From: a virus
Lineage: Duplodnaviria > Heunggongvirae > Uroviricota > Caudoviricetes
Reading direction: 5' to 3' (one strand)
Length of the DNA: 64,000 bases
IMG/VR virus record: IMGVR_UViG_3300010362_000014
Span: 10,740-74,739 of that record
Part shown: in pieces, positions 36,566-62,641 of the stretch
Position numbering within the stretch: position 1 is the first letter of the stretch
How the letters are laid out: the number at the start of each line of letters is the position of its first letter
The notes under the pieces: model-generated
Seen by the model: only the letters and a program-made list of their open reading frames with translations
What the model was told of the DNA's origin: nothing
The model's database searches: none
Position numbers and translations under genes: made by a program

Positions 36566-36587
36566 TTTGCCTCCTATTTCTATCTTG

Positions 36588-36660: not shown

Positions 36661-36674
36661 ACTGAATCCATATT

Positions 36675-39477: not shown

Positions 39478-39551
39478 TGGGACAGGTGAGACTTGAACTC
39501 ACGATTACCATTTTATAAGAATGGGGCCTTAACCATCTTGGCCACTGTCCC
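39478..39551 (-). tRNA. tRNA-Ile (anticodon TAT)
   Basis: Hand-folded. Acceptor GGGACAG/CTGTCCC, anticodon stem CCATT/AATGG with loop CTTATAA, T arm GTGAG-TTCAAGT-CTCAC. Confidence 0.65.
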
Positions 39552-39862
39552 TGGGCTAGCCTAAGCTAGCTTTTAATCATATAAATGCTTGTATTTCCGT
39601 CTAACTTGGCGTCTAATCTTACGCTTAAGTCTAAAAACTCTAAACTTTCGTAACAGGTAGTATCCATATGCTACTATAATTATCATAGTAGCAACAAATA
39701 CAGCCTGGAGTACGCTCACTTACGCTTCTTCGATTTTGACAAAAAACTCGGTGCCATCTTGTGTTTCCACCGCGATCTCGTTTTCACTAATGATTTCAAC
39801 AGTGTTGAGTTGATTTGAATCAAGTAGAAGACTCTCCAATTCCCTAAGTAGCTGCTTTAACG

Positions 39863-40342
39863 TCATCTTAGACAACCAATCTGTTCGACCTTCTCAGATA
39901 GCGTAGGAGCCTGTCTCGGAACATCAGGTGGCTTGACTAGCTTTGCCTTGAAAGCATTTGCAAGTTCGGCATTGTATCTAGCCTGTATGCTATTGTAGTT
40001 TGCTTCTCGCGCTAATGTTTGCGAAACTCGCTGTACTTTGATAGCCGGATCTGTCTCTGCATCTTCGGCCTTCTTAGCCGAACACCAATTCAGCGCCGAT
40101 GCCGTCAATGACTTATCGTAGGTGTAAGCAAAATCCCATTCAGAACTGACATGCTGTGGACTTATGATGTTTGCACCCGTGCTAAACCAACCACTAAGTA
40201 ATCCGATTACGGTAAATATTATACCAAAAATCAGAAATACTCCAATAGTTTTAAAGAGTAATCCAATTGGAGTCTGACGACGAAACCACCCAACTTCAGA
40301 CGAGTACTCATCGTCATGCATTTGTCCGAATGTTCTACCCAC
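39863..40342 (-). CDS. membrane protein
   Basis: N-terminal TM helix (IGVFLIFGIIFTVIGLLSGWF). Confidence 0.35.
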   Translation of the reverse strand: MGRTFGQMHDDEYSSEVGWFRRQTPIGLLFKTIGVFLIFGIIFTVIGLLSGWFSTGANIISPQHVSSEWDFAYTYDKSLTASALNWCSAKKAEDAETDPAIKVQRVSQTLAREANYNSIQARYNAELANAFKAKLVKPPDVPRQAPTLSEKVEQIGCLR

Positions 40343-40988
40343 TATGCACCAACCCTAGCAGTGCCGCCGCAGCAGGACATGGTGAGTCTGGCCTTGGATC
40401 TTTTGCCCTACACTTCTTTAATTCCGTCTGAACTTGTGCATCAATCGTATGCAAATCTACACCAGATGATACGGTAATATCAATCTTTGTAGACTGTTTT
40501 TGAATCACATCTGGAACATTGGTGCAATACATTTCTAGATTTGTAAAATCGTGATAGTTCCCGGCAGGGTCATATCCATATCTATATTCAGAACTTGTTC
40601 CATACATGCCTTGATCGTCAGGCAGTTCAGGATTGTACTTATATAGATAAGTGTTGTTATCTCCGTTATCGACCTCAGTAGTTGGCTTAGGCCGCTTATT
40701 GCTTGATGTTAACTTTCCAGCAATTGGCACTGTAAATGCTGCTGCATTTGGATTAGATGGATATGCAGTACACCAAATTAGTGCTGATGGATCATCAGAT
40801 TGAATGAGACGTGCGTTGTAATTGTGACCTTCGACATCATTCTTTGGTATATAATTCTTTCGATTATCTGCTACGTCCTTCGCTGTTGGGTTTTTAACAG
40901 TGTTATCCGATGTGCAAGCGCAACTAACCGTCAATAAAATTGGGATAGATGCTACTGCCACAATTTTCATCAATCTCGCAATGTTCAA
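40335..40988 (-). CDS. putative lipoprotein
   Basis: Signal peptide with a lipobox-like LTVSC(AC). Confidence 0.4.
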   Translation of the reverse strand: MNIARLMKIVAVASIPILLTVSCACTSDNTVKNPTAKDVADNRKNYIPKNDVEGHNYNARLIQSDDPSALIWCTAYPSNPNAAAFTVPIAGKLTSSNKRPKPTTEVDNGDNNTYLYKYNPELPDDQGMYGTSSEYRYGYDPAGNYHDFTNLEMYCTNVPDVIQKQSTKIDITVSSGVDLHTIDAQVQTELKKCRAKDPRPDSPCPAAAALLGLVHSG

Positions 40989-40991
40989 GTT

Positions 40992-41912
40992 CTATCCTTT
41001 TGTCGTTGGTACGTTCACTAATCCACTATTCATCATACAAAGACCGGGCGCAATTCCCATCTCCCGAGAATATTCAATACACTTGTTCTGGACATATTCG
41101 GGTGTTAGAACCGGACGCAGTTTGTCCGATACTGCCTTTTCCTTGTCAGCATTCAATCTCTGCTGATCAAGAATTCTCGATTGTAGAACAACATCCTGGA
41201 ATTTCTTGATGTTCTCTTCAGTCTTGGCGTCATGATGCACAATGGGAATAGCAACTGTATAAATTTTAATGCCAAATTGCTCAACTGCCTCAGACAGCCG
41301 CCGCTTCATGTCCTCTGCAAGTTTAGCACCATCGAACGTAGTTTGTCCAGTACGAATGTCAACTTGGGCCAATGGGTTATAAGTTGCAAAAGTAGCATTT
41401 AGGGCATTTTGAATTTCTAGATCTACAAAGTTTGCCTTAAGGTTATTAAAATCTCCCTTATATGTCTTATACAAAATCGGGGCCTGATCGCCTACTACCT
41501 GCCACTGAATCCGATTTTCTACACATGCAGTGGCAAGAGAACCGATACGAACTACCGTACAGCCATGATCCCAATCACCAATATGGTTTTCAGTGATCCT
41601 AGACGCATCAAAGTCAGCGACTCGCTGCCACGGCCATACAAACTTTAGTCCATTACCTGTTACGCGACCTGTTGGAGCGCTAAAACTAGTAACAATTCCA
41701 ATGTTGTTGACCGGTACTTGATAAGCACATGCAAAGAATAGAAAAATTACCGCGATGAATCCCAAACCTAATGATACAATTTTGCTGGTAGATTTCCATG
41801 GAATATCGTCTCTACGACTTCTTTCTTCATCTGGCTTCGCCTTAATCGCAACACTTACAAAAGCTACGGCTAAAATAAGAAAGAATATGAATGCAATGAA
41901 TTCAAATGACAT
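40992..41912 (-). CDS. SPFH/band-7 (prohibitin/HflK-like) domain membrane protein
   Basis: N-terminal TM segments followed by VPVNNIGIVTSFSAPTGRVTGNGLKFVWPWQRV, which is SPFH-like. Confidence 0.55.
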   Translation of the reverse strand: MSFEFIAFIFFLILAVAFVSVAIKAKPDEERSRRDDIPWKSTSKIVSLGLGFIAVIFLFFACAYQVPVNNIGIVTSFSAPTGRVTGNGLKFVWPWQRVADFDASRITENHIGDWDHGCTVVRIGSLATACVENRIQWQVVGDQAPILYKTYKGDFNNLKANFVDLEIQNALNATFATYNPLAQVDIRTGQTTFDGAKLAEDMKRRLSEAVEQFGIKIYTVAIPIVHHDAKTEENIKKFQDVVLQSRILDQQRLNADKEKAVSDKLRPVLTPEYVQNKCIEYSREMGIAPGLCMMNSGLVNVPTTKG

Positions 41913-42263
41913 TTGTGGTCGTTTTCTCCTTATTGTATTATAGCCCGATTTGACTATAGTAGGCCGCCAGGGTATTGATCCCTGTTCTCTAGATTAAAAG
42001 TCTAGAGCATCACCTTAATGCTTGCGGCCCAATCAAATTATGAGTTAAATGGATTTACGTACCCATTCGGGTCCTGCGTCATTAATATCATATTCGATTT
42101 TTCCTTCGACGCCGGTTATGCCTCTGAAAGCCGCTGTAGCAGGTTCATCTGGCCTATCCATTGTATTATGAAATCCAGCATTACGCTCGATTCTAACGTA
42201 TTCTTCTTTGGGAACTTCCATCCATTCCAAATCGGTTGAAATTTTTATAAAATATTTATTCAT

Positions 42264-42985
42264 TTATTCTTCTCGTTCCTTCTTGTGCTCTTCTTCAAAG
42301 AAGTCTACTACCGCTGCACCTGTACTCTGCCCACTAGCATATGATTTTGTGGCAGACCTTAACGTTGTAAATGTTGTATTATATGATGCAGCACTTCCGG
42401 TTGTACCAACGGTATTTGCTGCACCAACCAGGCCAACACCTTGACTCCAAGCATCTGCCCCGGCACCTAGATAAACGAATGTCCACTTATCGGTTGCCTG
42501 AAGCTCACTAATCAACTTGCGAACCGTATCAAAGTCATATTCCTGACTTGCATTTTCCAAGCCGTCTGTCTGGATAACAACAAGAACTTTATCATCGTCT
42601 TGTAATACGGTAGATTTACGGAATTCATTTATCGTTTTGCCTACCGCATCGAATAATGCGGTAAAACCGGCGGAACATAATTACTATTATTTAATTCAGG
42701 CACTTCAGCTGGAACCTTGTTCATGCATAAAGTTACAAAATCAGTATCAAATAACGTTGCCGTAACTAAGCATTCAGTTTGGTCCTCAATAAGACCTTTA
42801 ATATATGAATTGAAGCCACCTCGAACATCCTTCGCCACAGGCGACATGGATCCTGACATATCAGTGATGGTTAAAATATAGGTTGTCATATTATCTCCAT
42901 TCAATATTTTCCTTAGATGGAAAGAATGTGGGCGATCGTGTTTCCAGTTCACGAGTATCCAAAATATCTTCTTCCCAACGATCAA
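42264..42985 (-). pseudogene. von Willebrand factor A domain gene split into two ORFs (42641..42985 N-terminal part with the MIDAS motif DMSGSM, and 42264..42560 C-terminal part)
   Basis: The MIDAS motif is in the upstream ORF and the rest of the vWA-like fold in the downstream ORF. The two are separated by an 80-nt frame break. Confidence 0.4.
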
Positions 42986-43632
42986 CGATTTTTCGAATTA
43001 TTTCCATATCGACAACGCGAATAGCTCCTCGAAATCCGTCATAGTTAACATCGAAGACTTGACGAACGAATTTCATACGTGCTTCATTATCCATCTTTAT
43101 TCTCTTCTAATTTGGATTCGTATACAACTTCCGGAAGGGGCTCACGCGCTTCGTACATAATTTATTCCGTTATCGAGCCACATATCAAAGTGAATCGCCT
43201 GACCATCCGTCAAGTAGCAGCACAGCCATATACGATCGTTATCCATCCGTTCCATACGGAATGTCTCAACATAGTTTATAACGACATCATCGAGGCCGAG
43301 ATCATCATACCTTAGCGCAATTCGATAGTCATCACTCATCTTTATCCTTATTCGGATCTAATGAGTCGCTAGATGGTATTTTTGTAGTATTCACTTCTTG
43401 CCATATCTCAATCAGATGTCTAGCTTCGTCAATGGCAATCAAATGGTGATCAGGGGATCCTGCTTCATCACACAGGTCATAGTAGATCCGTAACATTAAT
43501 GGTAATAGCTTGTCTTGTGCTCGAAATACTACAACTGGTTCGTCATCCGCAATGGTTCCGCGTTCTGTTGTTACGCTTCCATATTTCGAATCAATTGCCA
43601 CTACTTTCCTCATTTCTCTTAGTACGTGTTTG

Positions 43633-43705
43633 TACCCCTGACAGGATTTGAACCTGCGACATGCGATTTAGGAAACCGCTGCTCTATCCACTGAGCTACA
43701 GAGGT
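43633..43705 (-). tRNA. tRNA-Arg (anticodon CCT)
   Basis: Hand-folded. Acceptor ACCTCTG/CAGGGGT, D arm GCTC-AGTGGATA-GAGC, anticodon stem GCGGT/ATCGC with loop TTCCTAA, T arm GCAGG-TTCAAAT-CCTGT. Confidence 0.75.
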
Positions 43706-43886
43706 AGTGCTAGAATGAATCTCATCGAGGTGGCACCTGTATCAGAATGCGCAACGAGGCTTACGATCCATTCTAGCTTTAGAAGCAAAATCTTAGCCTT
43801 TACTACAAGAGCAACCGAATACAAGACAATCGAAATTGCTTCTAGCTTCAATCGTCCGTTTTATGTATCTATATCGTTTAGATTGC

Positions 43887-43945
43887 TACATATGATGAGG
43901 TTATAACTACATATGATGAGGTTATAACTACATATGATGAGGTTC
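43887..43945. repeat. tandem repeat, about 2.8 x 21 bp (ctacatatgatgaggttataa)
   Basis: Read directly. Overlaps the stop codon of 43928..44305. Confidence 0.75.
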
Positions 43946-44305
43946 TAGATAGAAACGCCTCTTTGGTAGAGAACTTCCTATATGATTACATTTGTAGAAC
44001 GATTTTGCATTACAGCATGGGCGAATTCCATCAATCATGGTAGTACCATGTTCGTCAATAACAGAAATCTTGACGATATAATTTCCACCTTGACTTATTA
44101 TTATAGGTAGATTCTTGTTGTTCTTAGCTCTGCGCTCGGCGGCTTGGGTTAGTTTTAATTCATGACCCGTCGGCTCACCACGGGTACGGGCAGTTTTATT
44201 AGCGGCCTCACGAAGCTCCTGAGCGGCCTTGCGCTGTGCCTTACGAGCCGCAGTGTGCGCACGTGCCTGCGCCGCGTCCTTCTTTTTCGGTGGATTATTT
44301 GCCAT
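43928..44305 (-). CDS. basic (K/R/A-rich) protein, possible DNA-binding
   Basis: The N-terminal 60 aa are highly basic. Confidence 0.3.
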   Translation of the reverse strand: MANNPPKKKDAAQARAHTAARKAQRKAAQELREAANKTARTRGEPTGHELKLTQAAERRAKNNKNLPIIISQGGNYIVKISVIDEHGTTMIDGIRPCCNAKSFYKCNHIGSSLPKRRFYLEPHHM

Positions 44306-44766
44306 ATATGATCAATTCCTTTCAAGAATTATAGTTTTCTATTGATTCGTAATATTATTAAACCAATTAATACTCCTAAGATAAAGGCTATTGCATCAAT
44401 AACTATTCGTTCTAGAGTCATTTTATTACCGGCTCTCATAATCCGGCTAATTGGCTTTGGCTGCAGGAAGTCAATCCAACCTTATCCTTTTCGTGTATGG
44501 CAATCTGGCTAACTATCTCCATCGCTAACCTTTCCAGTCGTAAAATATACATTCTACGAAATGTATATTCTAGCCTGTCAGGCAATCTCTTTCGCCGCCA
44601 AGTAGTTGCCTAATCACCTTGATCTCCGCCAATCTCGGAGGACAAATCCTCTTTAGAAGTTAAAACATTACCCCCCTAGAAGATAAATCTTCCAGACTGT
44701 AACTGCGACGCATATGTTATTTATGCCTACACTATTAAGACTGACATATATTATTTAAGCATTTAT

Positions 44767-45249
44767 TTATGTCCTAATGCCTAATTTTTCTAATTCTATC
44801 AGATACTGCTGACGTACTGCTCGTGCGATCACGAAAATTTCTTCTTCATACTCCGGAAGGAGAGTTACATCTTCGAATTTCGGATCACTTCGCGATTCAA
44901 GAGCCGCCAACGATGTTGTATTGCTAAGATTCACGGCCACGTGTGGCACACCGTCCGGAATGAAAATAGACTCATATTTCCCATGAATCATGGAAATCCA
45001 TTTTTTATCATCAAAAATTAATGTTGCTGCTGTGCCCTCTAAACAGGTAACTATAATTTCACTATGCTCATGAACATGAGCCTTAGATACACCCCCAGGT
45101 TGCATAATGATTAACCCCTGAGAGATAAATTCAGATCCAGATGTTTCTTCAGTAATTAAAGGGTAAACCTTTTGCCCCTGTGGAGATGTAACCGGTTGAA
45201 TCTTGTGTGCTGAAATTATAGTTACTCGTTTAGTCATGGTTTTATCCAA
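44767..45249 (-). CDS. cupin-domain protein
   Basis: G(x)5HxH(x)3E ... G ... H ... N pattern (QPGGVSKAHVHEHSE ... PDGVPHVAVN). Confidence 0.5.
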   Translation of the reverse strand: MDKTMTKRVTIISAHKIQPVTSPQGQKVYPLITEETSGSEFISQGLIIMQPGGVSKAHVHEHSEIIVTCLEGTAATLIFDDKKWISMIHGKYESIFIPDGVPHVAVNLSNTTSLAALESRSDPKFEDVTLLPEYEEEIFVIARAVRQQYLIELEKLGIRT

Positions 45250-45638
45250 TCCGTTAAAGTTGCTAATTAGCTCATTCGTCGTCTACATTCATCTTCACCC
45301 AAATCGGATTCCAATATACACGATCCCATTGAAGATTACCATCTTCGTCATAACCGCGGAGAGTTATGCGTTTATTTTTGGCTCTCCATCTAATATTATA
45401 CGCGGAAAGGTTGACGACTTCTAGAACAACTACAGATTTGTAAAAAAGCTTAACTCTCATATTTACTTATACTCCACAATCGGTACAAAGATTGGTATCA
45501 AATTCTAAATCCTATCTTTTTCACCTTAAGCTATTACTCACGGTCAGCCCCCGGAGTTGTTGTTAAACTTCTCCATAGACCTAATAGCACCAGCCGGCTT
45601 TTGTATAAGGTCCGAAAAGATAGGGAGAAACGTGGCAG

Positions 45639-45721
45639 CGGAAGATAAAGGAATCGAACCCTCATGTTGTTAACATGGCACGGTTTTCAAGACCGATTGA
45701 GCACCTTGCTCGCTATCTTCC
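45639..45721 (-). tRNA. tRNA-Ser (anticodon TGA), type II
   Basis: Acceptor GGAAGAT/ATCTTCC with a G discriminator, D stem GAGC/GCTC, anticodon stem CGGT/ACCG with loop CTTGAAA, long variable arm CATGTT-AAC-AACATG, and a TTCGATT T loop. Confidence 0.6.
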
Positions 45722-45988
45722 TAATATGGTTCTTCATATCGTGGTATTATATCCTGAAATTGTATGGACAGAATATTAGACAAAATATTCTCCACTATTT
45801 TAGCTTACTAATAATTTCTGTCATATTCCTTCCCTAATAAATTTCTCATACTCTTTGGCTGCATCTAGTACCTTATTCATAAGCTGAATCGAATTCAGCT
45901 GATTCGCATTTCCAGATAGTGCTATTGCAGCTACCCTTAACGCGATAGCTCTAATTTTTTGATCTGTCATATCTAATCCAATCCAATT

Positions 45989-46050
45989 ATATTTATTCGT
46001 GATTTAGTCATAATCTTCCTATATTTATTCGTGATTTAATCATAATCTTC
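45989..46050. repeat. 30-bp direct repeat, 2 copies with 1 mismatch (atatttattcgtgatttaRtcataatcttc)
   Basis: Read directly. Intergenic, downstream of 46036..46329. Confidence 0.7.
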
Positions 46051-46329
46051 AAATCCTGATGTGAACTCATCAGGATTTACTTTTATAGCTCGACAAATTT
46101 TTACCCAAAACTCATTTGCATGTTTCGTACATAAATCTCGATGATGTTTATAGTTCACGCATAGCTCCGGATTTAAGTAAATAATAAGCTCTTGTCGATC
46201 ATCATTATCATCATATGGATCATCAGATATATCAGTACCACATACATCACATTTATATGTGGCTTCCTTGACATAAATAGTCTCAACTTTCTCGGAAATT
46301 CTGATCTGCCGACTCATACTATTCCTCAA
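46036..46329 (-). CDS. small zinc-finger protein
   Basis: CDVCG...C...H...C. Confidence 0.3.
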   Translation of the reverse strand: MRNSMSRQIRISEKVETIYVKEATYKCDVCGTDISDDPYDDNDDRQELIIYLNPELCVNYKHHRDLCTKHANEFWVKICRAIKVNPDEFTSGFEDYD

Positions 46330-46645
46330 GATTATTTGTTCGATCCGTATGTCTATCCACCCATGACCAGAAAAGGTTAGTATTACTTATGAGATTCAAT
46401 CCCCAATGACCATTCTTCATGTATCTCCACTGGGGTCTAGTTTCCGTTTTATGAGTTTTAGAATCCCATTTATATAATCTGCCATATCTAGGAATGTTAT
46501 TTAATATGCCAATTAAGTTGACAATTTTATCTTGAGTCCGTATACTACATTTTTCTTCAATTTCGTTCGCAACATATGTGATTATCGGTTGAGTTAGCTT
46601 ACGGGGAGTTCTTAATATTATACTTAATATACGATTGAAATTCAT
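46319..46645 (-). CDS. hypothetical protein
   Basis: ORF. Confidence 0.25.
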   Translation of the reverse strand: MNFNRILSIILRTPRKLTQPIITYVANEIEEKCSIRTQDKIVNLIGILNNIPRYGRLYKWDSKTHKTETRPQWRYMKNGHWGLNLISNTNLFWSWVDRHTDRTNNLEE

Positions 46646-47565
46646 CTCAATCTCGATCTAATCGGCAAGCAAGCCTCACCCTGCTCAGATATCAATCTAG
46701 ACATTGCCGATCTTTTAATCTTTGCACATCCGTTTATTCCCCAACCTGGTCCCCACGAATTATGTAAGATATAGCAATCTTCCTTGAGATTGATACCCTT
46801 GGCCAAAATACAATGTCCGCCGGCCAATGATCCTGTGGGCTTTATATAGCCATTAATATCTGGCTTGAACATTCCCGTATACCAATTTATGCCAAGAACT
46901 ACTGGACCATGGTATGCAATTGCAGATGCAATCTCTTGTTCGGTATCTGCCCAGTGATACGACAAATAAAAGCTTAATGATGTCAAGACTTTGGCACCAG
47001 CAAGTACAGAGGTGCCTTCATAGAAGGGCACGGCGCCGGGATATGCACCGCCTGGCCATTCATCATTTTGTTGGAATTGAAAATAAAGCGCATTATTCTT
47101 AATAAGATTTGATACCGTATCAAATTTGACCAGGACTGGTCTAGCTAGAAGCTCATGTGAAAATCCATATTGGACACATGTGCCTTCATTACCTTGGTCT
47201 AGATGATATTGGTTTACTTTACTAAAACCAACCGACCAAGTGTAAGACCTAAGTGGAGCTGCAACATCTATGATAGCCGATATTCTGAAATTCCGGCTAC
47301 GAATGTCGGATTGCAAGATTCTACCAAGACGAGGATCAGAAACTACAGATCCATCCTTCAGTCTGGTTCCAGTTCTAGCCATTCTGACCAAGATTCTATC
47401 AAATAGGACCAAGAATTCATATAATATAAAGTGACTACCCCAACGATTGGGGGACTCAGCCTGGGGACAACTGGTATAATCGTTGGGGTAGTCACGTCTT
47501 GTTGTTACTATTCGTAATCTGTCCAATTTGATATGATATTCTGGAAGAATTAATATTCCATGCAC
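46642..47565 (-). CDS. papain-like cysteine peptidase (C1 family-like)
   Basis: Order of triad segments: NEGTCVQYGFSH (Cys) ... GGHCILAKG (His) ... ILHNSWGPGWGINGCAKI (Asn-Ser-Trp-Gly...Trp-Gly). Confidence 0.5.
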   Translation of the reverse strand: MHGILILPEYHIKLDRLRIVTTRRDYPNDYTSCPQAESPNRWGSHFILYEFLVLFDRILVRMARTGTRLKDGSVVSDPRLGRILQSDIRSRNFRISAIIDVAAPLRSYTWSVGFSKVNQYHLDQGNEGTCVQYGFSHELLARPVLVKFDTVSNLIKNNALYFQFQQNDEWPGGAYPGAVPFYEGTSVLAGAKVLTSLSFYLSYHWADTEQEIASAIAYHGPVVLGINWYTGMFKPDINGYIKPTGSLAGGHCILAKGINLKEDCYILHNSWGPGWGINGCAKIKRSAMSRLISEQGEACLPIRSRLR

Positions 47566-47729
47566 GACATTTGGAAGTATAGCGAGATCATCGCGAAGAG
47601 CACCTTGTTGATATATTGAGACATCGTTTAATCTTTACCATCTAATTAAAGTGTATCATTTGATTAAGACAGGTTTACTAGAGCTCAATCCTTTTCACTC
47701 AGTAACACGCTCTCCCTCGCTATACTTCG

Positions 47730-47801
47730 AGACCCTGACAGGATTTGAACCCGCATAAAGACGATTTGCAATCGTCTGCCTATCCATTCGGCCACAGGAT
47801 C
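47730..47801 (-). tRNA. tRNA-Cys (anticodon GCA)
   Basis: Acceptor GATCCTG/CAGGGTC with discriminator U, D arm GCC-GAATGGATA-GGC, anticodon stem GACGA/TCGTC with loop TTGCAAA, and a TTCAAAT T loop. Confidence 0.65.
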
Positions 47802-48145
47802 ATAGTTGTCCGGCAGATCTAACTCCCAGAAATAAATCTTATTTCTGATCATGACTAGTCTTGGCTTAGGAGGGTGCTTTAACCAGACAACGTTGTACTA
47901 CCACATTGATGTACTCAGACCGCAGACCAGCGAGGGCCTACGTCTAATATTGTCCATTTTATTGTTCGTTATCCGTTTTATTATCCACAATTTCTGATGT
48001 TATTCTAGCATAATTCTGGAATTGACTATCTGTCAGGGTTCTAATCTTTTTACCAAGTTCGTTTTGCCGTCTAGTTAGTAGATTTTCTGCTCGAATAACA
48101 AGTCTGAAAGCCTCAACGGCATTTGCAACTTCAGGATCCATCATG

Positions 48146-48229
48146 TGCGGACGACGAGACTTGAACTCGTATGCTCTCTAGAGCGGAAACTTTTAAGGTT
48201 TCTGTGTATGCCGATTCCACCACGCCCGC
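48146..48229 (-). tRNA. tRNA-Leu (anticodon TAA), type II (bldA-like specificity)
   Basis: Acceptor GCGGGCG/CGTCCGC with discriminator A, anticodon stem GAAAC/GTTTC with loop CTTAAAA, variable arm GCTCT-AGA-GAGC, and T arm ACGAG-TTCAAGT-CTCGT. Confidence 0.7.
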
Positions 48230-48710
48230 AGTTATATATTTTTACTGGCTTTGGCGGGGAGGAGCCGATACCCTTCGACCCCTCCCCTTTTTCTCGGATA
48301 AGAAACTATGATTTTCTACCGAAAATTGGGTCAGTATCCCACCAACGCCGTTTAAAGATGCAAATCAATCTTTAAGACTTTGCGTACTGCCATTATACGA
48401 TTTCCCCATGGGTATAGTCTTTAGAGTATATGAATATAATTTTGCAGGAATGAATATAATTTTGGAGGGGAAACCAGGATTCGAACCTGGACACAAATGT
48501 CACTGTATGCATCTGCTCGATTTGGTGTTCGTGCCTTTGTTACCACGAGACTAGAGCGATAATCTCAATCTTACATGGATTTATTTTGCCAATTAAACTA
48601 CTGCGGCACGACTTAAAGCCGCAGGATGGATTCGAACCACCATCTAATCCTGATGAGTTAGACTGATAATGAGTCTAACTATGTAACCCGTGCGCTCTAA
48701 TCACGGGAGT

Positions 48711-49448
48711 CTATGCGAAAAGATATCCAAAGACTACGTTAGATACCTTGACATTATCAACTTCTGTTGAATTTGCTCGTTCTCTGGCTACCTTTACGGC
48801 ATCGGTAAGCTTACGTACTCGTTCAAGTAATTCACTTGAACGAGTAGCCGGAATAGCACCCGAGAATCGTGTGGTATCCCAATAGCCGACGAGCACGTCT
48901 TCTTGATAGGGCTGAACCTGAGCCGGATGTTTTTCGGTCGCCTCATAGAGCACAAAAGCTTTCGGTACTTTCTTGCTTTTAACAGTAGTAGTTACCGGGG
49001 AGCGGTATGTTCCGGTAGTAGAATCAAATTCCCATTCAACCGAAGGATCAAGAAGTGGAAGCTTACTAACGAATGTGCTAATATCAACCAGCTTCTTTTC
49101 CAAGAAGAGAAGATATGTCACCGGCACATTTGCTAATAAAACGGTGCCGTCGATGATAACATCGGCTTTAGCTGCTGTATTACCAGTCTCTAAGGTGGCC
49201 GTCAAATCGAAAAGTCGAGAAAGTGACTTTGATGCTCTATCTAAAAGATTATCTACCGTTATCTGAACCGCATTGCCCTCATTTGGATAGACATCGCCCT
49301 CGTCATCCTTACGACGATAGACTCTGGTCAGTCCGCTTAGTGGTTCTGCCCGCTGTGAATCGTGGTGAACTTTGGTAAATGATGTTTCTGCTCTGTTCTT
49401 TTCACCCTTAACTAGGGCGATAACCTGATTAAGTAAGGCCATTCTCAT
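48711..49448 (-). CDS. hypothetical protein
   Basis: 245-aa ORF. Confidence 0.35.
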   Translation of the reverse strand: MRMALLNQVIALVKGEKNRAETSFTKVHHDSQRAEPLSGLTRVYRRKDDEGDVYPNEGNAVQITVDNLLDRASKSLSRLFDLTATLETGNTAAKADVIIDGTVLLANVPVTYLLFLEKKLVDISTFVSKLPLLDPSVEWEFDSTTGTYRSPVTTTVKSKKVPKAFVLYEATEKHPAQVQPYQEDVLVGYWDTTRFSGAIPATRSSELLERVRKLTDAVKVARERANSTEVDNVKVSNVVFGYLFA

Positions 49449-49654
49449 CCTTATCCAATAACAATTTTAAATTAATCGTATGGTACATCGTAGCCTCGCC
49501 GGGAATCGAACCCGGTCTTAACGCAGACCGACAGAGCGCAAAGCTAACCAATACTCAACAAGGCCAAGCGGCTAATATAGTGGCAGGCAGTCCCACTCAT
49601 CCTGCACTTTGGGCAAGGGCTAATTAGGAATCCCCTCGCACTATATTAGCCTCG

Positions 49655-49728
49655 TGGCTGGTAAGAGAATCGAACTCCTAACGTCCACCGTTCATAAACG
49701 GATTTGACGCCTCACCCAATATCCAGCC
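49655..49728 (-). tRNA. tRNA-like gene, anticodon arm non-canonical (possible tRNA pseudogene or unusual tRNA)
   Basis: Acceptor GGCTGGA/ACCAGCC, D stem TTGG/TCAA and T arm AGGAG-TTCGATT-CTCTT are fine. The anticodon region CCGTT-TATGA-AACGG gives a 5-nt loop. Confidence 0.3.
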
Positions 49729-49841
49729 TGTTCTCGGGTAGCGAGTATAACGCTGGTGCCGGCCAAAATTCCCATACCCGAATAGGGGACCCTCATGAAT
49801 TTCACATATTTCCCCACCTTCTCAGATGAGAGTTCTATATA

Positions 49842-50258
49842 TTACAGATTTGCAACAAGTCCATTAGTTGTATCGGTCACGGTAATATCTACAAAACTAA
49901 CCGTCATGGGAGGATCGCAGCTAGGACTAAGTTCCGCAGTTAAAGTCAAGGTAAAGTCCGCTTTTCCGTTTTGTACCGGGAAATCGCCTTCTGCTGTAAG
50001 ATCTTCTTTGTTAACTGCTTTAGGATGGTTACCGCCACCGTTTATACATAATGCCGTAGCGCTTACTACAACATGAATTTGTTCTTCATCGCCGAGACCT
50101 GCTTCTTTGCCGACCACAGTCAATGTGGTGTCTGTTTGTGTTGCTGAGAAAGCCGAGTCGATGAAATGTGGACTTCCAGCGAACGCCGGGATTGGAACGA
50201 GCAGGACCATGATTATACCAGAAATCATGATTAGTCCGACTCGACCGATACCTTTCAT
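49842..50258 (-). CDS. secreted/exported protein with N-terminal signal peptide
   Basis: MKGIGRVGLIMISGIIMVLLVPIPAFA followed by a T/S-rich beta-like sequence. Confidence 0.4.
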   Translation of the reverse strand: MKGIGRVGLIMISGIIMVLLVPIPAFAGSPHFIDSAFSATQTDTTLTVVGKEAGLGDEEQIHVVVSATALCINGGGNHPKAVNKEDLTAEGDFPVQNGKADFTLTLTAELSPSCDPPMTVSFVDITVTDTTNGLVANL

Positions 50259-50296
50259 AGAGCCTCCATATAGTATATGAAGGAGAAATCCTTCGT

Positions 50297-50370
50297 GGCG
50301 GGTAACGGATTTGAACCGCTGATCTTCGGCTTATGAGGCCGACGGGAACGACCGAGCTTCCCCAACCCGC
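50297..50370 (-). tRNA. tRNA-Met (anticodon CAT; initiator, elongator or Ile-lysidine type not resolved)
   Basis: The 3' half GTCGGCCTCATAAGCCGAAGATCAGCGGTTCAAATCCGTTACCCGCCA closely parallels bacterial tRNA-fMet. Anticodon stem TCGGC/GCCGA with loop CTCATAA, D stem GGAA/TTCC. End coordinates are +/-2 nt. Confidence 0.6.
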
Positions 50371-50494
50371 TTTGAGGTAGTCAATTAGATTGCCTACCGA
50401 ACTGCGCCACCCCGCTTTGGATTAATTCACGGTATTATTTATACTATAATCTTTGATTAATATTATGTGATTGAATCGAATACTTATATTTGCT

Positions 50495-50749
50495 TTACCA
50501 CCATAGCCACTGCGCGATATGACGGTGTTGATAAGATGGCGTTTCTATATCAGTTTCACTGTTTGCTCTATAATCCTTGATTGCATTTACTACATCTATG
50601 CGCACCTTCGCACGCTGCGGGCCGTACCATACGTGATTTATGTACCATTTCGGTGGGCTTCGAAACCAATGATATGGATAGACTTCTCTGTTTCTAAGAC
50701 GATATGGTACATCTTTGTCTGTTCTGGACATAACGTAGGCTCCTTTCAT
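50495..50749 (-). CDS. hypothetical protein
   Basis: ORF. Confidence 0.25.
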   Translation of the reverse strand: MKGAYVMSRTDKDVPYRLRNREVYPYHWFRSPPKWYINHVWYGPQRAKVRIDVVNAIKDYRANSETDIETPSYQHRHIAQWLWW

Positions 50750-50764
50750 GAACCTTACGTCATA

Positions 50765-51109
50765 TCAATCACCTCCAAGGTCTATATTACCATGAACTGA
50801 ACACGCCTCTTTAGGACAAAGGAAATTGTCATCATCAGGCCATAGTTTATTCGCTACTTCGCAGGGATTAGAAATTGGTTGTCTATAACGAAGTTTTTCG
50901 TATTTACATTCCAGACTCATGGCTGCGGATATTATACGCCATCCTATGTAATCCAAGAATTGAATTTTATAGGGTAGTTTCATTAATGAATTACATTGCG
51001 AACACAATATTTTTTCTGTTAGATACGAAACCGTGAGAGCCCAAAATGGAACATCGACAATTCTAATATCGGCGCCATCTTTATGATATGATACGTGAAC
51101 CTTTAGCAT
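50765..51109 (-). CDS. hypothetical Cys-rich protein
   Basis: ORF. Confidence 0.3.
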   Translation of the reverse strand: MLKVHVSYHKDGADIRIVDVPFWALTVSYLTEKILCSQCNSLMKLPYKIQFLDYIGWRIISAAMSLECKYEKLRYRQPISNPCEVANKLWPDDDNFLCPKEACSVHGNIDLGGD

Positions 51110-51120
51110 ATAAAACCCCT

Positions 51121-51194
51121 ATTTAACCCCAACTAGACACAGATTGTGGTTTAACTAACCCTACCGCCCATGGAGATCTGTGTCTAGTTGGGGA
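51121..51194. terminator. perfect 18-bp inverted repeat hairpin (CCCCAACTAGACACAGAT ... ATCTGTGTCTAGTTGGGG)
   Basis: Read directly from the sequence, immediately upstream of (5' to) the minus-strand gene 50765..51109. Terminator versus operator role is unresolved. Confidence 0.4.
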
Positions 51195-51590
51195 GTGTAT
51201 CATTTCTGTATACTTTGGTACATATTAATTATGTGTGGGACCAGGCCAATCATATGTCGGGCCGGGCCAGTCAGTGAATTCCCAATCCATAATAATCCTT
51301 AAAGTTAACATTAATATTATAGCCGCTTTACATTACGTTGGGTTCTCCACGAATGGATTTACAATTCAGACTTTTTGGGTCTAATGAGCCTCAATTATAA
51401 AGGGAAATAGGTGTGGTGGTGCCATTCCTAACCCCTACCTGTAAAAAGCTACCTTATTCATCCTAAGCTTGTTCTTAATTTATCCTAAATCAAGCCCCGC
51501 ACGAAAGGAATACATTATTCAATCGCAGAGGTTTAAACAAGCTCCTGTCCGGCATTTGTATAGGATCCGAAAGATAGCAAAACGTGAACG

Positions 51591-51665
51591 AGCCTTGCGT
51601 GAGGTTCGAACTCACAACCTAATCCCTACAATGGATTTGCTCTGACCAATTAGAGCTAGCAAGGC
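51591..51665 (-). tRNA. tRNA-Thr (anticodon TGT)
   Basis: Acceptor GCCTTGC/GCAAGGC, D arm GCTC-TAATTGGTCA-GAGC, anticodon stem AATCC/GGATT with loop ATTGTAG, T arm GTGAG-TTCGAAC-CTCAC. Confidence 0.75.
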
Positions 51666-55300: not shown

Positions 55301-55351
55301 CCATACCTATTTCTAGCCCATACCTATTTCTAGCCCATACCTATTTCTAGC
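55301..55351. repeat. perfect tandem repeat, 3 x 17 bp (ccatacctatttctagc)
   Basis: Read directly. Confidence 0.8.
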
Positions 55352-55693
55352 CTCATCTAACGCGGCATTGTAGGCCGATCCCCACGTCTCACCGACATCC
55401 TGAAAAGCCTGTGCAACATCTAAAATGTTACAAAGTTCACTCGGCAATCCAAGATCAAGGCAAATCCAAAAAGCTGATCTGTTTTCGAAACGAATAAGCT
55501 CGTCAAGAGTTAGCGTTCCGGCAGTAATAAGAACGTGGCCGATGAGGCAATGCGGTTCACCATCATACACATATTTGCATCTACCGTGTATGGTTTGATA
55601 TACGTAATCCTCACCAAACTCTGGTAATTCAATAATTCCCTTCATAATACCCAGATAAAATATAATTTCGTCTTTCGTCTTCTGTGAAATCAT
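55313..55693 (-). CDS. hypothetical protein whose C-terminus is encoded by a 17-bp x3 tandem repeat
   Basis: The C-terminal GLEIGMG... is encoded by the repeat 55301..55351. Confidence 0.3.
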   Translation of the reverse strand: MISQKTKDEIIFYLGIMKGIIELPEFGEDYVYQTIHGRCKYVYDGEPHCLIGHVLITAGTLTLDELIRFENRSAFWICLDLGLPSELCNILDVAQAFQDVGETWGSAYNAALDEARNRYGLEIGMG

Positions 55694-58547: not shown

Positions 58548-59702
58548 CTAGATATGACAATCCAGCATTACGATGATTGTATCCTTGGGCAAGGATTCTA
58601 AGTACCGATTGGCGAATTCCTTGTAATTTCTAGTGGAGTCTTCGGTCGCATCGCTTATTGCCCAAAAGCCCATCTTGCCAGCTTCGGCCCATTTGCCATC
58701 AAGTGTTATCAGTGCCCAACCAGGTACAGCATCACGGCGAGCGTTATCTGCAAATTCATCCCGATTGAGACCAAATTCCTCTTCTGGGCTTCTAGACATG
58801 AAACTGTAGATTTCTGCTTTTCCAGCAGCAACAATTGCCGGATGCTCATTATATAGCCTACGTGCATCGTCGATTTCCATCTCGCCAACTTCGACGAGAG
58901 ATCGTAAATGTTGCCACGCCGGCGGACTGCCGTGCTGAGCAACAATGCTTTGCCATGTATCGTATCGCTCTAATTGTCTAGTTGCTTCATTTTCGCGTAT
59001 TGTATGAAAATCAAGCAACTCAACAGGTCCGCCATCGCAGAAAATTCTATTATCAGAGTCTAAATATGGATTGTCATTATCTCCGAATACGCCTGGTACG
59101 CCGTGAATAAGCAAATGTGGATCTGCGTCAGAAATACTGACGAGGCTACGCTGCCAACGTCCACCAATAAGCCACCAATCCCACTTGCTATCGGGATTAT
59201 ATGTACTCATTGTATAAGCTCTATCTAGTTCCTCGTCATAATACAGTCTGTCACTATCATTTTCGCTGTTGTTGTCGGGGGGATATAGTGATAAAGCAGA
59301 GGAATAGTATCGCTCATTTTGGAGTTCGACGACATCTTTCCAGGTTGGATTATCGCCCAACTTCGTATCATAGCTTGCGTCTTCTTCCCATTCGCCGGAT
59401 TGCTCAATGGCAGCGATTCCTTTTTCCATAGTATCTTCGCGCCAGTTTACTACTTTATTTTCCAAACGACGGCGTACTAATTCGCATGGACCCAGTTCTT
59501 GTAGGGCTCTAAAGCTCTCGGCACCACGCCGCATCGACGATACAAACCAGTGATCTGATGGCGATCCCTCTTCATATACACGATAGGGCTCGACATCTTT
59601 ATTTTCATCGTACGGTGCTAATATAGCGTTGAGAGCATGCACTATGCCAAGCTCAGATACGATTTTAGGATCTAGGCATGCTGTTACGGTGAAGTGACTC
59701 AT
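58548..59702 (-). CDS. hypothetical protein adjacent to the ligase
   Basis: 384-aa ORF, acidic, no motif recognised. Confidence 0.3.
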   Translation of the reverse strand: MSHFTVTACLDPKIVSELGIVHALNAILAPYDENKDVEPYRVYEEGSPSDHWFVSSMRRGAESFRALQELGPCELVRRRLENKVVNWREDTMEKGIAAIEQSGEWEEDASYDTKLGDNPTWKDVVELQNERYYSSALSLYPPDNNSENDSDRLYYDEELDRAYTMSTYNPDSKWDWWLIGGRWQRSLVSISDADPHLLIHGVPGVFGDNDNPYLDSDNRIFCDGGPVELLDFHTIRENEATRQLERYDTWQSIVAQHGSPPAWQHLRSLVEVGEMEIDDARRLYNEHPAIVAAGKAEIYSFMSRSPEEEFGLNRDEFADNARRDAVPGWALITLDGKWAEAGKMGFWAISDATEDSTRNYKEFANRYLESLPKDTIIVMLDCHI

Positions 59703-60390
59703 TTACGTCCAATCTTAGTGTGTTTATGGTTCATATGTTATATCCATTTACGATAGCGTATATAATAGTAACAATAACTACAATCGCAAAATAGCCTATA
59801 TCCCTTATTATAATTTAGATCATGAGGTTCTCTATCGGTCTTGGTTTTGATAATATCATGCCAAAATTTAGAGCGAGATATTATCTCATCACCTCGTGCT
59901 AGATACCATGTATCCAGATACTTAGCGATTCTAAACTTTGGCATCATACTACCTCCAGAAGATGCTGCTATTCTGGCCACAAGTCCGTCTTGATCGGTTT
60001 TTCCTTAGGTATGTCCTTAGATGTAACAGATATCAACTCGCCATATATATTATTAATATATTGCAGTAGCGCAGCCTTGTTATATGACCAAATATCACCT
60101 ATCCATGGAATGGATATCGCATAATATACTTGACCACTTGAGTCCTTATCGACTATAACCTCAAAACCAAATACATTCTTACCTGTAATCTCATACCCAG
60201 TATCTGGCATAATAATACCTTTCCATTTTGTATATTATTTTTGCCGGTTATTTTAGACTATCGGCAAGTCTTATAAGTATTGTTCTTGATTGTACATGAC
60301 GATATACATTCTGGAACCGCCGCCTCGACCGCGTTAGCATCTCCTTGGAGTCTCACCGTCGTCGACTAGGGCGTGGATCGCACTTGTGCG

Positions 60391-61209
60391 TCACGACCGT
60401 ACTTTTGTCGCCCATTCCTCATCGAGCGCCTTGCGGAGTTGCCTGACAAACGTGGTCGGGTCATCGCGCTCGAAAATCTGGCGACCATACGCGACGCCAG
60501 CAGCGCCCGCTTGGATCGCAGATCGCGCCTTTGCGATGGCTGCGCCGGCGTCGACGAGCGCTTCGCCTGCGATTACGAGCGGCACTCCCATCGCGGCGTC
60601 GATCACCGTCCGGAAGGACTCCACGGAACCGGTGTACATGGTCTTCACGACACTCGCGCCCAGTTCTACCGAGGTTCGTACGCAGTGGCGGACCAGCCTC
60701 GCGTAGGAATCTGGATCGTCCGATCGCAGCTCGAGGTAGTTGTTGTCGCCACCGTCAGACGTGCGACCCCGTGGGTACGCCATCGCAACGACGGGGATGT
60801 CCACTCCGGTCGCCTTGCTGGCCAGCTGAGCGAGCTGCCGAGTCGCCTGTCGTTCGTACGGCGAGGTGTAGTTCACGTGAAAGGCGACGGCGGCTGCGTC
60901 GAGCCGTACCGCATCTCTCATTCGGCCGATCGGCACCTTTTGCGTGTGTTCGACGAGCGTGGTGCTGCCACTCATGTTGAGGATGAGGGGAACGTCCAGC
61001 AGCTGGTCGGCGCAGGCGGCAAAAGTACCTCGGAAGCCGATGACAGCATCGATGTGGTGGACGAGTTCGGCTTGAAGTAGGACGCGTGGGCGGCGCAGGC
61101 CTACTTCCGGACCGGCGATCAGTGAATCATCAAGCGGAAGCCAAAGGGCAGCTTGTCCTGCCGGCAGCAGCCGATGGAGTCGTCGTCGGACCCCAGTCGC
61201 ATCTGACAC
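60391..61209 (-). CDS. class I aldolase, DhnA/FbaB-type (DeoC/LacD TIM-barrel aldolase family)
   Basis: 272 aa with overall similarity to the archaeal-type fructose-bisphosphate aldolase / ADH synthase family (VVAMAYPRG, VKTMYTG Lys region, VIAGEA). Local GC is about 65% against a flanking value near 40%. Confidence 0.6.
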   Translation of the reverse strand: MSDATGVRRRLHRLLPAGQAALWLPLDDSLIAGPEVGLRRPRVLLQAELVHHIDAVIGFRGTFAACADQLLDVPLILNMSGSTTLVEHTQKVPIGRMRDAVRLDAAAVAFHVNYTSPYERQATRQLAQLASKATGVDIPVVAMAYPRGRTSDGGDNNYLELRSDDPDSYARLVRHCVRTSVELGASVVKTMYTGSVESFRTVIDAAMGVPLVIAGEALVDAGAAIAKARSAIQAGAAGVAYGRQIFERDDPTTFVRQLRKALDEEWATKVRS

Positions 61210-61566
61210 GGAATCTCCTCATTCCTGTAATGGGTCTACCTTCATGTCGTAGGCAGCAAATAATACCAATGCATTAATCGGACATGATAGTATACATTCT
61301 GTCAAAGAATGTATACTGTCAAATCTAACTAATCCGTTTTTATGTCCTCACGCAGTTCCGGAATCGAATTACGTCTCTTATGCTTCAAGATTTCCTCAGC
61401 TAATTTTACGAGTTGATCTCCAAATTGCTCATGTAGATTCCTGTTCGTTTATTCTAACAGATAAGGATTCTCTAGATCCGTTTAGTCAAACATAGCAAAA
61501 TAGGGGTTCTTATGAACCCCTATTCTACTAAACTCGACTAACCATGAGGTGTCAAGTTTGTGTCAC

Positions 61567-62337
61567 CTATTCGTCAGAATTGTCTGAACTGTCAGACTTC
61601 TCGCCGTTACGGCCCTCTTTGGCATCGACCTTAGCTTGCTCAGCCTCTGCGAAACTGCGCTTAGCGTTAGTTTCAAGCTCATCAATCTCAGCAGCGGTAA
61701 TACCAGCCTCACGCATCCAGCGACGATATTTCTCGACTAGACCGCGCTTTGTGGTAGCTCGCTGTTCCCACAGGTCGGCGCGGGATTCGGCATACAGTGC
61801 CTGAGCCACCGGACCCGTATCGGGCCGAACAAACAGCTCACGCAGCTCATCAGGAGTGCGCTTAGAAGCACTCACCCCGGTAGCCGAGCCACGGGTAGAA
61901 AGCCGTTGCGCACGCTCGGTCCAGAAATCCAATCCTTGAGGCATCAGAACGTAAATAGTTGGCTTTACGTCTGGGCCATCATCGGGGTGGCGAACCTTAA
62001 CATGCGGAAGAGGCTCACGCTTGGCATTAGCAGCCTGATATACATTAGGCGGCAAAACCATACCAAACTTGTGCTTGCCATCATCACCCACATAATAGGT
62101 CAGAAACTCGGCAAACTCGCCAACCTTCATACTACCTTCGGGTGCCTGCGGCAATACCTCTTCTGTTTCATCGGCTTCTTGCTCATCATTATCTGAGACA
62201 GAATCCTCGGCTTCGTCGAAGCCATCGCCGTTATCTTCATCAGGAGTAGTATCCTGAATCTGAGTTTGCTGCGGACCAACGAGTTCATCAAAAACAGCAT
62301 CCACAGACGATAGGGTGTTATCCATGATTATCTCCAA
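61567..62337 (-). CDS. acidic hypothetical protein
   Basis: ORF with D/E-rich termini. Confidence 0.35.
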   Translation of the reverse strand: MEIIMDNTLSSVDAVFDELVGPQQTQIQDTTPDEDNGDGFDEAEDSVSDNDEQEADETEEVLPQAPEGSMKVGEFAEFLTYYVGDDGKHKFGMVLPPNVYQAANAKREPLPHVKVRHPDDGPDVKPTIYVLMPQGLDFWTERAQRLSTRGSATGVSASKRTPDELRELFVRPDTGPVAQALYAESRADLWEQRATTKRGLVEKYRRWMREAGITAAEIDELETNAKRSFAEAEQAKVDAKEGRNGEKSDSSDNSDE

Positions 62338-62641
62338 TTTAATTAAGAAATGACTAGAAAGTTAAAAAGTTGAAATTACTAAAACTAGTAGGGATAAAAC
62401 TATATTACTATAACCTGTCCGTTACACGGTAGGTGTGCTGGTGCACTGCACCACAGGCGATACGGGTTTAGGTGTTAATCCTTGTTATGCTAGTTTGGGT
62501 ATAATATGTTAATATCGCCCGTATGTCTAGTTTGTACTATATGTCATGTATGTGCACCTTGGACAACCCACCGGCAGGAGGTTGTGGTGTACACCACATC
62601 CACCCGGCGCCGGCTGGATCATCCGAGCTACACATCTAATT

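Follow-up and report, generated by a model that had tools for sequence, protein, structure and literature searches.

The 64,000-nucleotide (nt) stretch of viral DNA analyzed here (IMG/VR record IMGVR_UViG_3300010362_000014, Caudoviricetes, positions 10,740 to 74,739; hereafter the window) carries, between two phage genes, a foreign island of ~912 bp with a high guanine-plus-cytosine (GC) content (60314..61227), delimited by a step in GC and by nucleotide homology to a soil metagenome contig. The island holds an intact gene for a 272-amino-acid (aa) class I (Schiff-base) aldolase of the DhnA/ADH-synthase/LsrF superfamily (60391..61209, minus strand), assigned from Pfam, NCBIfam, PDB and a structure model. 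We consider it probable that the island is a piece of Micromonosporaceae-like chromosome that was captured by illegitimate recombination into the early region of an uncultured, low-GC, tRNA-carrying, siphovirus-like actinophage.

Composition and gene content of the island

In 200-nt intervals, GC ranges from 0.59 to 0.66 across 60300-61199, compared with 0.33 at 60100-60299 and 0.36 to 0.40 at 61200-61499, confirming, against a background of ~0.42, the ~0.9-kb GC-rich island that an initial annotation of this DNA had described. Outside the island, 300-nt intervals have a mean GC of 0.416 (standard deviation, 0.044) and none exceeds 0.58; the maximum within the island is 0.647. GC changes abruptly at the left edge (60313/60314) and more gradually at the right, between 61209 and ~61255. 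Codon usage shows the difference as well, with a GC content at third codon positions (GC3) of 0.69 in the aldolase versus 0.28 to 0.40 in phage genes. With an overall GC of 0.63 versus 0.42 for the phage, the island has the atypical composition by which morons and auxiliary metabolic genes are recognized.

The minus-strand open reading frame (ORF) at 60391..61209 is the sole credible gene of the island. Four plus-strand ORFs within it have no Pfam match, consistent with the earlier proposal that they are GC artifacts and not genes. A transposon or insertion sequence was rejected, since the only gene is the aldolase, there is no transposase, and the island ends are not inverted repeats of each other; the sequences flanking the island were likewise rejected as a transposon target-site duplication, the repeat being at least 28 nt long yet merely 79% identical.

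Relatives of the aldolase and the bacterial donor

The nearest protein, at 76% identity, is encoded on a 1.5-kb JGI soil metagenome contig of 69% GC (L003), and the next nearest, at 55 to 62% identity, belong to Phytohabitans, Actinoplanes, Paractinoplanes and Catenuloplanes. In a profile scan with one genome per species, all matches of at least 55% identity are from Micromonosporaceae, followed by Pseudonocardia (47%) and by others scattered at 42% or less; those relatives of at least 47% identity for which DNA is known all have 66 to 73% GC. A neighbor-joining tree (without bootstrap) places the window gene and the soil-contig protein within a Micromonosporaceae-type clade, on a branch of ordinary length. 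The closest homologues are thus cellular, and the gene is nested in a cellular clade, as in a moron. No viral homologue was found in PHROG families, GenBank phages or IMG/VR contigs, including by a profile scan of viral contigs. Scans of the genome and viral collections with the single aldolase sequence returned nothing, and the profile scan succeeded for genomes. Three tblastn matches to records labeled as phage were set aside, as they look cellular (LsrF-like) and not like genuine phage genes; one lies in a contig of a Salmonella genome and the other two in unannotated records, of 2.3 kb ("Escherichia phage") and 9.9 kb (fecal).

The similarity to the soil contig extends beyond the gene on both sides. 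Nucleotide homology runs from 61227 to 60412 at 77% identity, beginning 18 nt upstream of the GTG start codon of the aldolase, and includes the ribosome-binding site (RBS) GAGGAG (61215..61220, minus strand), which lies 5 nt ahead of the GTG, aligns with GGGAGA before the GTG in L003 and was inherited from the donor. After a short break, the homology resumes through the 3' tail (60370-60313) and reaches the island edge. As judged from this alignment, the tail contains the last 17 codons and stop (...AASTALASPWSLTVVD*; 60314..60367, plus strand) of a gene that is convergent with the aldolase in the donor and that is cut by the left junction. In L003, the gene convergent with the aldolase ends ...DASTRLELTVD*, and the alignment of the remnant to the DNA beyond the L003 aldolase has a score of 31, which was reached in 0 of 500 shuffles. 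The same convergent neighbor family adjoins the aldolase in 8 actinomycete loci. Because the island retains the end of the donor's convergent neighbor, we read it as a captured piece of actinomycete chromosome, consisting of a leader with the donor RBS, the aldolase and a 17-codon neighbor stub. The sharp GC step, the actinomycete relatives and this remnant bear out the earlier view that the phage carries foreign DNA derived from bacteria.

On its other side, the aldolase is accompanied in 11 of 12 actinomycete loci by a protein of ~1,000 aa with an FGE-sulfatase domain (L020/L021, 3646-6657; flanks of L022 to L031). Of this pair, the phage took the aldolase alone.

Flanking repeats and the junctions

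The island is bracketed by direct repeats. The sequence TATACATTCTG occurs exactly twice in the 64 kb (60303-60313 and 61291-61301), and the full repeat is 28 nt long, with copies that are 79% identical and a core of 20 nt (ACATGAYRRTATACATTCTG). Copy B (60286..60313, plus strand) abuts the left end of the island and opens the leader (60211-60313) of p80a, an 80-aa phage ORF directly downstream (59968..60210, minus strand) that has no homologue besides itself in 5.8 billion proteins. Copy A (61274..61301, plus strand) is one arm of a palindrome, which it builds together with a third, inverted copy at 61305-61324. The initial annotation had placed the repeats at 60299 and 61299; they are real, but these coordinates are off by ~4 to 8 nt and the repeat is longer than the 11 nt noted. 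Its 10-bp hairpin at the right copy also exists, with a perfect stem of 11 bp (GTATACATTCT / AGAATGTATAC) and a 5-nt loop (61301-61305), and it lies within an 81-nt imperfect palindrome (61263..61343) whose 38-nt arms are 74% complementary. The RNA fold of the palindrome has an energy of -31.9 kcal/mol (z = -3.6), equaled by 0 of 200 shuffles. A local alignment between the two flanks as good as the 28-nt repeat was obtained in 8 of 2,000 shuffles and in 1 of 105 real control pairs within the window; taken alone, the repeat is real, not overwhelming.

We observe that the repeat belongs to a longer, degenerate duplication, of which it has survived best. From 61301 to 61220, the sequence is a shortened copy (83 nt versus 139 nt) of the p80a leader and the first ~10 codons of p80a (60313 to 60175), the shared blocks being, in order, the 28-nt repeat, AATG....GGTATTATT immediately ahead of the p80a ATG, and ATTACAGG at codons 8 to 10 of p80a. 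The segment at 61220..61273 (minus strand), just upstream of the aldolase, reads as a decayed duplicate of the end of the p80a leader (AATGCATTGGTATTATT) followed by approximately the first 10 p80a codons (...ATTACAGG). The chain of blocks aligns with a score of 39.5 (0 of 2,000 shuffles; 13 of 2,000 when the 28-nt repeat is left out). The upstream copy is without a 60-nt element and without the ATG. Similarity between the copies ends at 60313/61301, which in the upstream copy is 1 nt into the palindrome loop, and 4 nt (CAGG, 61224-61227) are common to the p80a-like remnant and the donor homology.

The repeat motif is absent elsewhere in 72.5 kb of the genome. It is therefore not a general insertion motif, and a genome-wide regulatory motif was rejected for the same lack of further copies. 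The earlier suggestion that the gene was inserted at a repeated motif does not hold up, as the motif occurs at this locus only and belongs to the duplication of the p80a leader. From the sequence, the repeat fits better with a capture scar or a duplicated gene module than with a target motif.

These features suggest how a capture by illegitimate recombination probably proceeded. The fragment taken up would have comprised 18 nt of donor leader including the RBS, the intact aldolase gene and the 17-codon stub of the neighbor. In the simplest model, the first join would have exited phage DNA at about codon 10 of a p80a copy, through the 4-nt CAGG overlap, and the second would have re-entered ~137 nt further upstream, at the apex of the palindrome, a plausible point of breakage. 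Two such illegitimate joins automatically leave the p80a leader directly duplicated around the insert; the duplicate would later have decayed, losing 60 nt by deletion as well as the start codon and diverging by 21% in the core.

The repeats might instead be functional sites, with an operator or terminator palindrome before the aldolase and a half-site before p80a, so that their position at the island edges is incidental. Three copies are present, two of which make up a dyad whose stem has 11 perfect base pairs; shuffled sequences fold less stably than the hairpin; and both direct copies begin a gene leader and are similarly placed relative to the RBS-proximal GGTATTATT. However, similarity between the copies ends exactly at the island edge and at the hairpin loop and extends into the ~10 first codons of p80a, which a binding site would not need. 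No sigma-70-like promoter overlaps the repeats, and no canonical terminator was found at them. We consider it unlikely, with a small but real chance of being right, that this explains the repeats; it is in any case compatible with capture, since a duplicated leader can remain functional.

The locus in a distant relative

The upstream phage gene, p256 (61567..62337, minus strand), has a single relative in 5.8 billion proteins, with 47% aa identity. It was with p256 as query that this relative was found, on a 1.2-kb Logan contig of 50% GC (L019) that ends 110 nt past it. The 110-nt tail aligns to 61531-61478 (score 27; 1 of 500 shuffles) and then, gap-free, to 60287-60243 (score 34; 0 of 500). 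The first of these blocks falls in a terminator-like hairpin after p256 (AGGGGTTC-ATAA-GAACCCCT, then a T-rich tail) and the next 22 nt (61478..61541, minus strand), conserved in L019; a simple terminator scan did not flag this hairpin. The second block is an element of the p80a leader that we term Y (...ATAAGACTTGCCGATAGTCTAAAATAACCGGC; 60243..60287, minus strand) and that in L019 follows directly after the terminator region. Compared with L019, the window has 1,190 nt extra, comprising repeat copy B, the island and an AT-rich stretch of 224 nt that contains the palindrome and a 39-codon open frame. This frame (TNRNLHEQFGDQLVKLAEEILKHKRRNSIPELREDIKTD*; 61329..61448, minus strand) has no ATG, GTG or TTG start, enters the left arm of the palindrome and may be the 3' remnant of a lost gene; it falls within the 1,190 nt missing from L019. 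The arrangement in L019 supports an insertion; with L019 so distant, the AT-rich part may or may not have arrived together with the island. As for an empty site in homologous phages, the only p256 relative is indeed without the insert, but it is distant and its contig is short. A scan of JGI metagenomes with p256 found nothing, and a scan of IMG/VR with a neighboring 384-aa protein gave relatives of 40% identity or less, with no common neighbors.

This comparison also bears on whether the island came by cassette exchange between phages, in which a 1.19-kb block (60288-61477) would have entered by recombination at a short repeated leader or stem-loop, a route reportedly put forward for the PeSL cassettes of T4-type phages, the bacterial capture having taken place earlier and in another phage. 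The size of the insert relative to L019, 1,190 nt of which 224 nt are AT-rich and phage-like, would suit such an exchange, as would the resemblance of repeat and stem-loop to a module boundary and the partial amelioration of the gene (see below), which implies a long stay in AT-rich phage genomes. Set against this, no other copy of the motif exists in the 72.5 kb and no phage or viral contig has a related aldolase, a decayed version of the phage's own p80a leader and first codons precedes the aldolase, pointing to a local duplication, and L019 is too distant to define the ancestral bases. We regard such an exchange as quite unlikely.

Age and selection

The aldolase of the window has GC1/GC2/GC3 values of 0.71/0.49/0.69, compared with 0.71/0.46/0.89 in L003 and 0.77/0.50/0.95 in Catenuloplanes; phage genes have a GC3 of 0.28 to 0.40, apart from p256 (0.48). 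Substitutions were polarized with Catenuloplanes as outgroup and L003 as sister lineage. At third positions, the window lineage shows 33 changes from G or C to A or T, 17 between G and C, and none from A or T to G or C, while the L003 lineage shows 6, 20 and 3, respectively. Unique amino acid changes number 19 in the window lineage and 18 in that of L003, and the ratio of nonsynonymous to synonymous substitution rates (dN/dS) between the two genes is ~0.18. The one-directional GC-to-AT drift at synonymous sites, with no excess of amino acid change, indicates that the gene is selectively maintained and partly ameliorated: the substitution pattern shows a gene kept under purifying selection whose synonymous sites appear to drift from ~90% toward the phage GC3 of 35%, now standing at 69%. 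The most fitting interpretation is that the gene has long resided in the phage under selection. The initial annotation had called the gene recently acquired, which is at odds with the fall of GC3 from ~0.9 to 0.69, with 33 GC-to-AT changes against 0 in the other direction, and with repeat copies that differ at 6 of 28 positions.

A recent transfer could nevertheless be imagined from a non-host bacterium of ~63% GC, with no amelioration and with the aldolase as a neutral passenger. The GC edges are still sharp, the best match is only 76% identical, and the noncoding tail is as rich in GC as the gene. Yet the relatives of at least 47% identity with known DNA lie at 66 to 73% GC, with a GC3 of 0.89 to 0.95 in the two measured; the GC-to-AT bias is confined to the window lineage, with zero reverse changes; amino acid change is not faster and the invariant residues are all retained; the flanking duplicate has decayed, by 21% in the core and a 60-nt deletion, which speaks for age; and several phage genes indicate actinomycete hosts. 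A recent transfer of this kind is therefore, in our judgment, decidedly unlikely.

The second most GC-rich stretch of the window lies in the 3' two-thirds of p256 (61601-62050), with 56 to 60% GC, a GC1 of 0.67 and a GC3 of 0.48.

Support from independent assemblies

An ENA MEGAHIT contig (k141; 88,602 bp) and a Logan contig (8,679 bp), 100% identical to each other, both contain the exact protein and the two junctions. A metagenomic contig with an extreme jump in composition and short repeats at both edges might raise the suspicion of a chimera, i.e., soil actinomycete reads fused into a phage contig. However, two assemblers with very different k-mer lengths arrived at the same junctions, and the window represents yet another version of the contig. 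The exact repeat, at 11 nt, is far below k-mer lengths of 31 to 141 and so cannot mislead assembly. Moreover, a chimera would not yield a degenerate duplication of the neighboring leader, nor does it agree with the intermediate GC3 and its directional drift or with the co-orientation of the gene with its neighbors. An island produced by assembly is very unlikely, and the fusion of soil actinomycete reads in particular we hold to be extremely improbable.

The sole difference between the window and these two contigs is one extra unit of a 17-nt tandem repeat ~5 kb away (GCTAGAAATAGGTATGG, minus strand; 55301-55351), which has three copies in the window and two in the ENA contig. The unit is not a multiple of three and lies at the 3' end of an ORF (55313..55693, minus strand), so that copy number alters the C terminus.

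Family, fold and predicted function of the aldolase

The aldolase matches the Pfam family PF01791 (DeoC/LacD) with an E value of 6.5e-27 and 95.1 bits, above the gathering cut-off of 23.8, and the match (residues 39 to 247) spans profile positions 21 to 228 of 229. The top NCBIfam match is NF005556, at 187 bits under a cut-off of 241. No cut-off was reached for ADH synthase (AroA'; TIGR01949, 159.2 versus 299.45), for class I fructose-bisphosphate aldolase (FBA; archaeal NF040816, 143 versus 430; FbaB-type NF006704, 39.7 versus 277), for LsrF (NF006081, 125 versus 297) or for BagB/FevI (NF041223, 102.5 versus 500). Of the DhnA/FbaB-type aldolase proposed from the initial reading, the class I aldolase of DhnA/ADH-synthase type stands, with clear similarity at the superfamily level (PF01791, 95 bits), but an FBA label is unjustified, as the protein scores below the curated FBA cut-offs. 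Its substrate cannot be named, because it falls under every curated equivalog cut-off.

An AlphaFold2 model (predicted local distance difference test, 93.8; predicted template modeling [TM] score, 0.93) is a (beta/alpha)8 TIM barrel, with Foldseek TM scores of 0.80 to 0.83 to 2qjg, 4p2v and 1ok6 and E values down to 7e-22; the best PDB match by sequence is 2qjg (E value, 1.9e-28). Residues D27, Y145 and K189 align with D33, Y153 and K184 of MJ0400, which makes them the probable catalytic residues, and they are invariant across 30 homologues. In the 30-sequence alignment, none of the 29 invariant or 37 near-invariant positions has changed in the protein. All neighboring genes have the same orientation as the aldolase gene. 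A scan for sigma-70-like promoters, as opposed to actinomycete-type ones, found none at 61210-61480; no terminator was found after the aldolase on the minus strand, and no Rfam RNA family in the leader. Our best guess, held with moderate confidence, is that the aldolase would be a working Schiff-base enzyme acting on a phosphorylated ketose and made together with the early genes. Through Lys189, it could act on a phosphorylated keto-sugar and so redirect host sugar-phosphate metabolism during infection.

Among characterized enzymes, the closest by both sequence and structure is the ADH synthase MJ0400 of Methanocaldococcus jannaschii (PDB 2qjg/2qjh/2qji; ~30% identity, TM score 0.83), with which the aldolase shares the GR phosphate-binding motif. 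Unlike MJ0400, it has a 13-residue insertion after the YPRG strand, PLDDS in place of PMDHG and AGE in place of AGG. Actinomycetes use the standard shikimate route, which makes the ADH-synthase reaction unlikely. The fold and the position of the catalytic lysine are also shared with Escherichia coli LsrF (PDB 3glc/4p2v; E value, 1e-21) and archaeal class IA FBA (1ojx; 4e-19), both at a TM score of ~0.80, whereas identity is only 24 to 26% and the scores are far under the equivalog cut-offs. LsrF of E. coli is a thiolase acting on a breakdown product of phospho-AI-2. More speculatively, and with little credence on our part, the aldolase could be, instead of a generic carbon-flux gene, the first viral member of the uncharacterized actinomycete clade linked to the FGE-sulfatase proteins, serving the phage to make or destroy a particular phosphorylated keto-sugar metabolite or signal of filamentous actinomycetes, much as LsrF destroys phospho-AI-2, or capture at a palindrome apex together with duplication could be a general signature of gene pickup by lytic phages.

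Comparison with known phage-borne genes

Known morons and auxiliary metabolic genes include the morons of lambdoid phages and mycobacteriophages and the cyanophage transaldolase gene talC. Like these, the aldolase is a single extra gene between two phage genes, has aberrant GC, is co-oriented, encodes an enzyme of bacterial central-metabolism type and is missing in L019. It differs in having no detected promoter or terminator of its own and in belonging to a family with no relative in PHROG, GenBank phages or IMG/VR; the remnant of a donor neighbor and a flanking duplication are still visible here, which is uncommon. The term moron or auxiliary metabolic gene, used in the initial annotation, is apt with regard to composition and cellular ancestry; the promoter and terminator of its own that define a classical moron were not detected by the sigma-70-like scan. 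The island is an ordinary kind of event of this class, with junctions that are unusually legible.

The setting also recalls the PeSLs, reportedly described by Arbiol et al. in 2010 as "mobile regulatory cassettes" of T4-type phages, i.e., units of promoter and stem-loop in many copies across the genome. Here as well, a new gene in a plastic early region is bordered by short repeated leader sequence with a stem-loop, but the motif is confined to one locus and no promoter consensus was found.

Several observations weigh against capture from an actinomycete as we describe it. There is no close phage relative and hence no precise empty site, L019 being distant (47%) with a tail of just 110 nt, and L019 is also without the 224-nt AT-rich stretch at 61254-61477, so that the insertion relative to it exceeds the island. 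The duplication signal past the 28-nt core is weak (13 of 2,000 shuffles), and the core alone was equaled by 1 of 105 control pairs. The intermediate GC3 could reflect a donor of ~63% GC instead of amelioration, although no such donor is known in the aldolase clade. No promoter was detected by the sigma-70-like scan between the p256 terminator and the aldolase. The aldolase reaches no equivalog cut-off, its actinomycete orthologues being themselves uncharacterized, and the probable host is deduced from gene content alone.

The finding leaves current concepts unchanged. What it offers is a clean natural case of host-gene capture by a phage of lytic type in which both junctions can still be read, the traces being microhomology, a stub of the donor's neighbor gene, a duplication whose end coincides with the apex of a hairpin, and measurable amelioration of a gene kept by purifying selection. 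Phage-carried enzymes now include a DhnA/ADH-synthase-like class I aldolase, and the retention of the gene by a phage marks an uncharacterized Micromonosporaceae aldolase clade for biochemical study.

The phage and its probable host

The phage contig is 88.6 kb long and has 41% GC. Genes in the window encode a tape-measure protein, tail proteins, a family A DNA polymerase, a primase, a helicase, an exonuclease and an RNA ligase, and portal and tail-tube genes lie on another piece of the contig. The phage proteins are 25 to 52% identical to anything deposited, and a megablast search with 59000-62500 against 50,697 phage records gave no match.

Evidence for an actinomycete host comes from several genes. 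A 131-aa protein (30497-30892, minus strand) with three DUF397 (BldB-like) stretches (E value, 1.9e-36) has phage homologues only in Streptomyces and Saccharomonospora phages, and its GC is low, normal for the phage; the family of BldB-like DUF397 proteins has been described as exclusive to filamentous actinomycetes (PMC10364602). The top matches of a DUF7873 protein are in Rhodococcus, Arthrobacter and Gordonia phages, ~67 of 80 matches of the primase are actinophages, and 40 of 66 matches of the RNA ligase are Streptomyces phages, while the relatives of the DNA polymerase give no host signal. Judged by this gene content, the host is probably a filamentous actinomycete. With a Micromonosporaceae-like donor clade and a phage that bears actinophage hallmarks, the host origin of the aldolase proposed in the initial annotation is plausible.

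Eleven tRNA genes (36587-51665, minus strand) are placed singly among small ORFs, most of them reading A-ending or AGR codons (codons read: AGA, AUA, AAA, AGG, UCA, UUA and ACA). Such codons are rare in high-GC hosts. The tRNA at 49654-49728 has an abnormal anticodon loop and could not be assigned by ARAGORN.

A precedent for a low-GC phage on a high-GC host is phage Coruscant, with 48% GC and 41 tRNAs on a Streptomyces host of 72% GC (PMC7650747). The phage described here resembles Coruscant and the cluster BE phages (PMC7650747, PMC5764925) in a GC far below that of the presumed host, many tRNAs, siphovirus type and many orphan genes, and it differs from them in its GC (41% versus the reported 48%), its length of 88.6 kb and its lack of nucleotide similarity to deposited phages. 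An unusually low-GC (41%) actinophage lineage without close relatives is thereby indicated.

The early region also contains accessory-looking genes, all on the minus strand, for a Fic/DOC protein (35686-36297), an SPFH/Band 7 protein (40992-41912), a cupin (44767-45249) and a papain-like cysteine peptidase (46642-47565). On the same contig, ~8 kb beyond the window start, a 70-aa gene with a precomputed match to Pfam PF26761 (Acb5) lies upstream of the portal gene (L102, 422-634).

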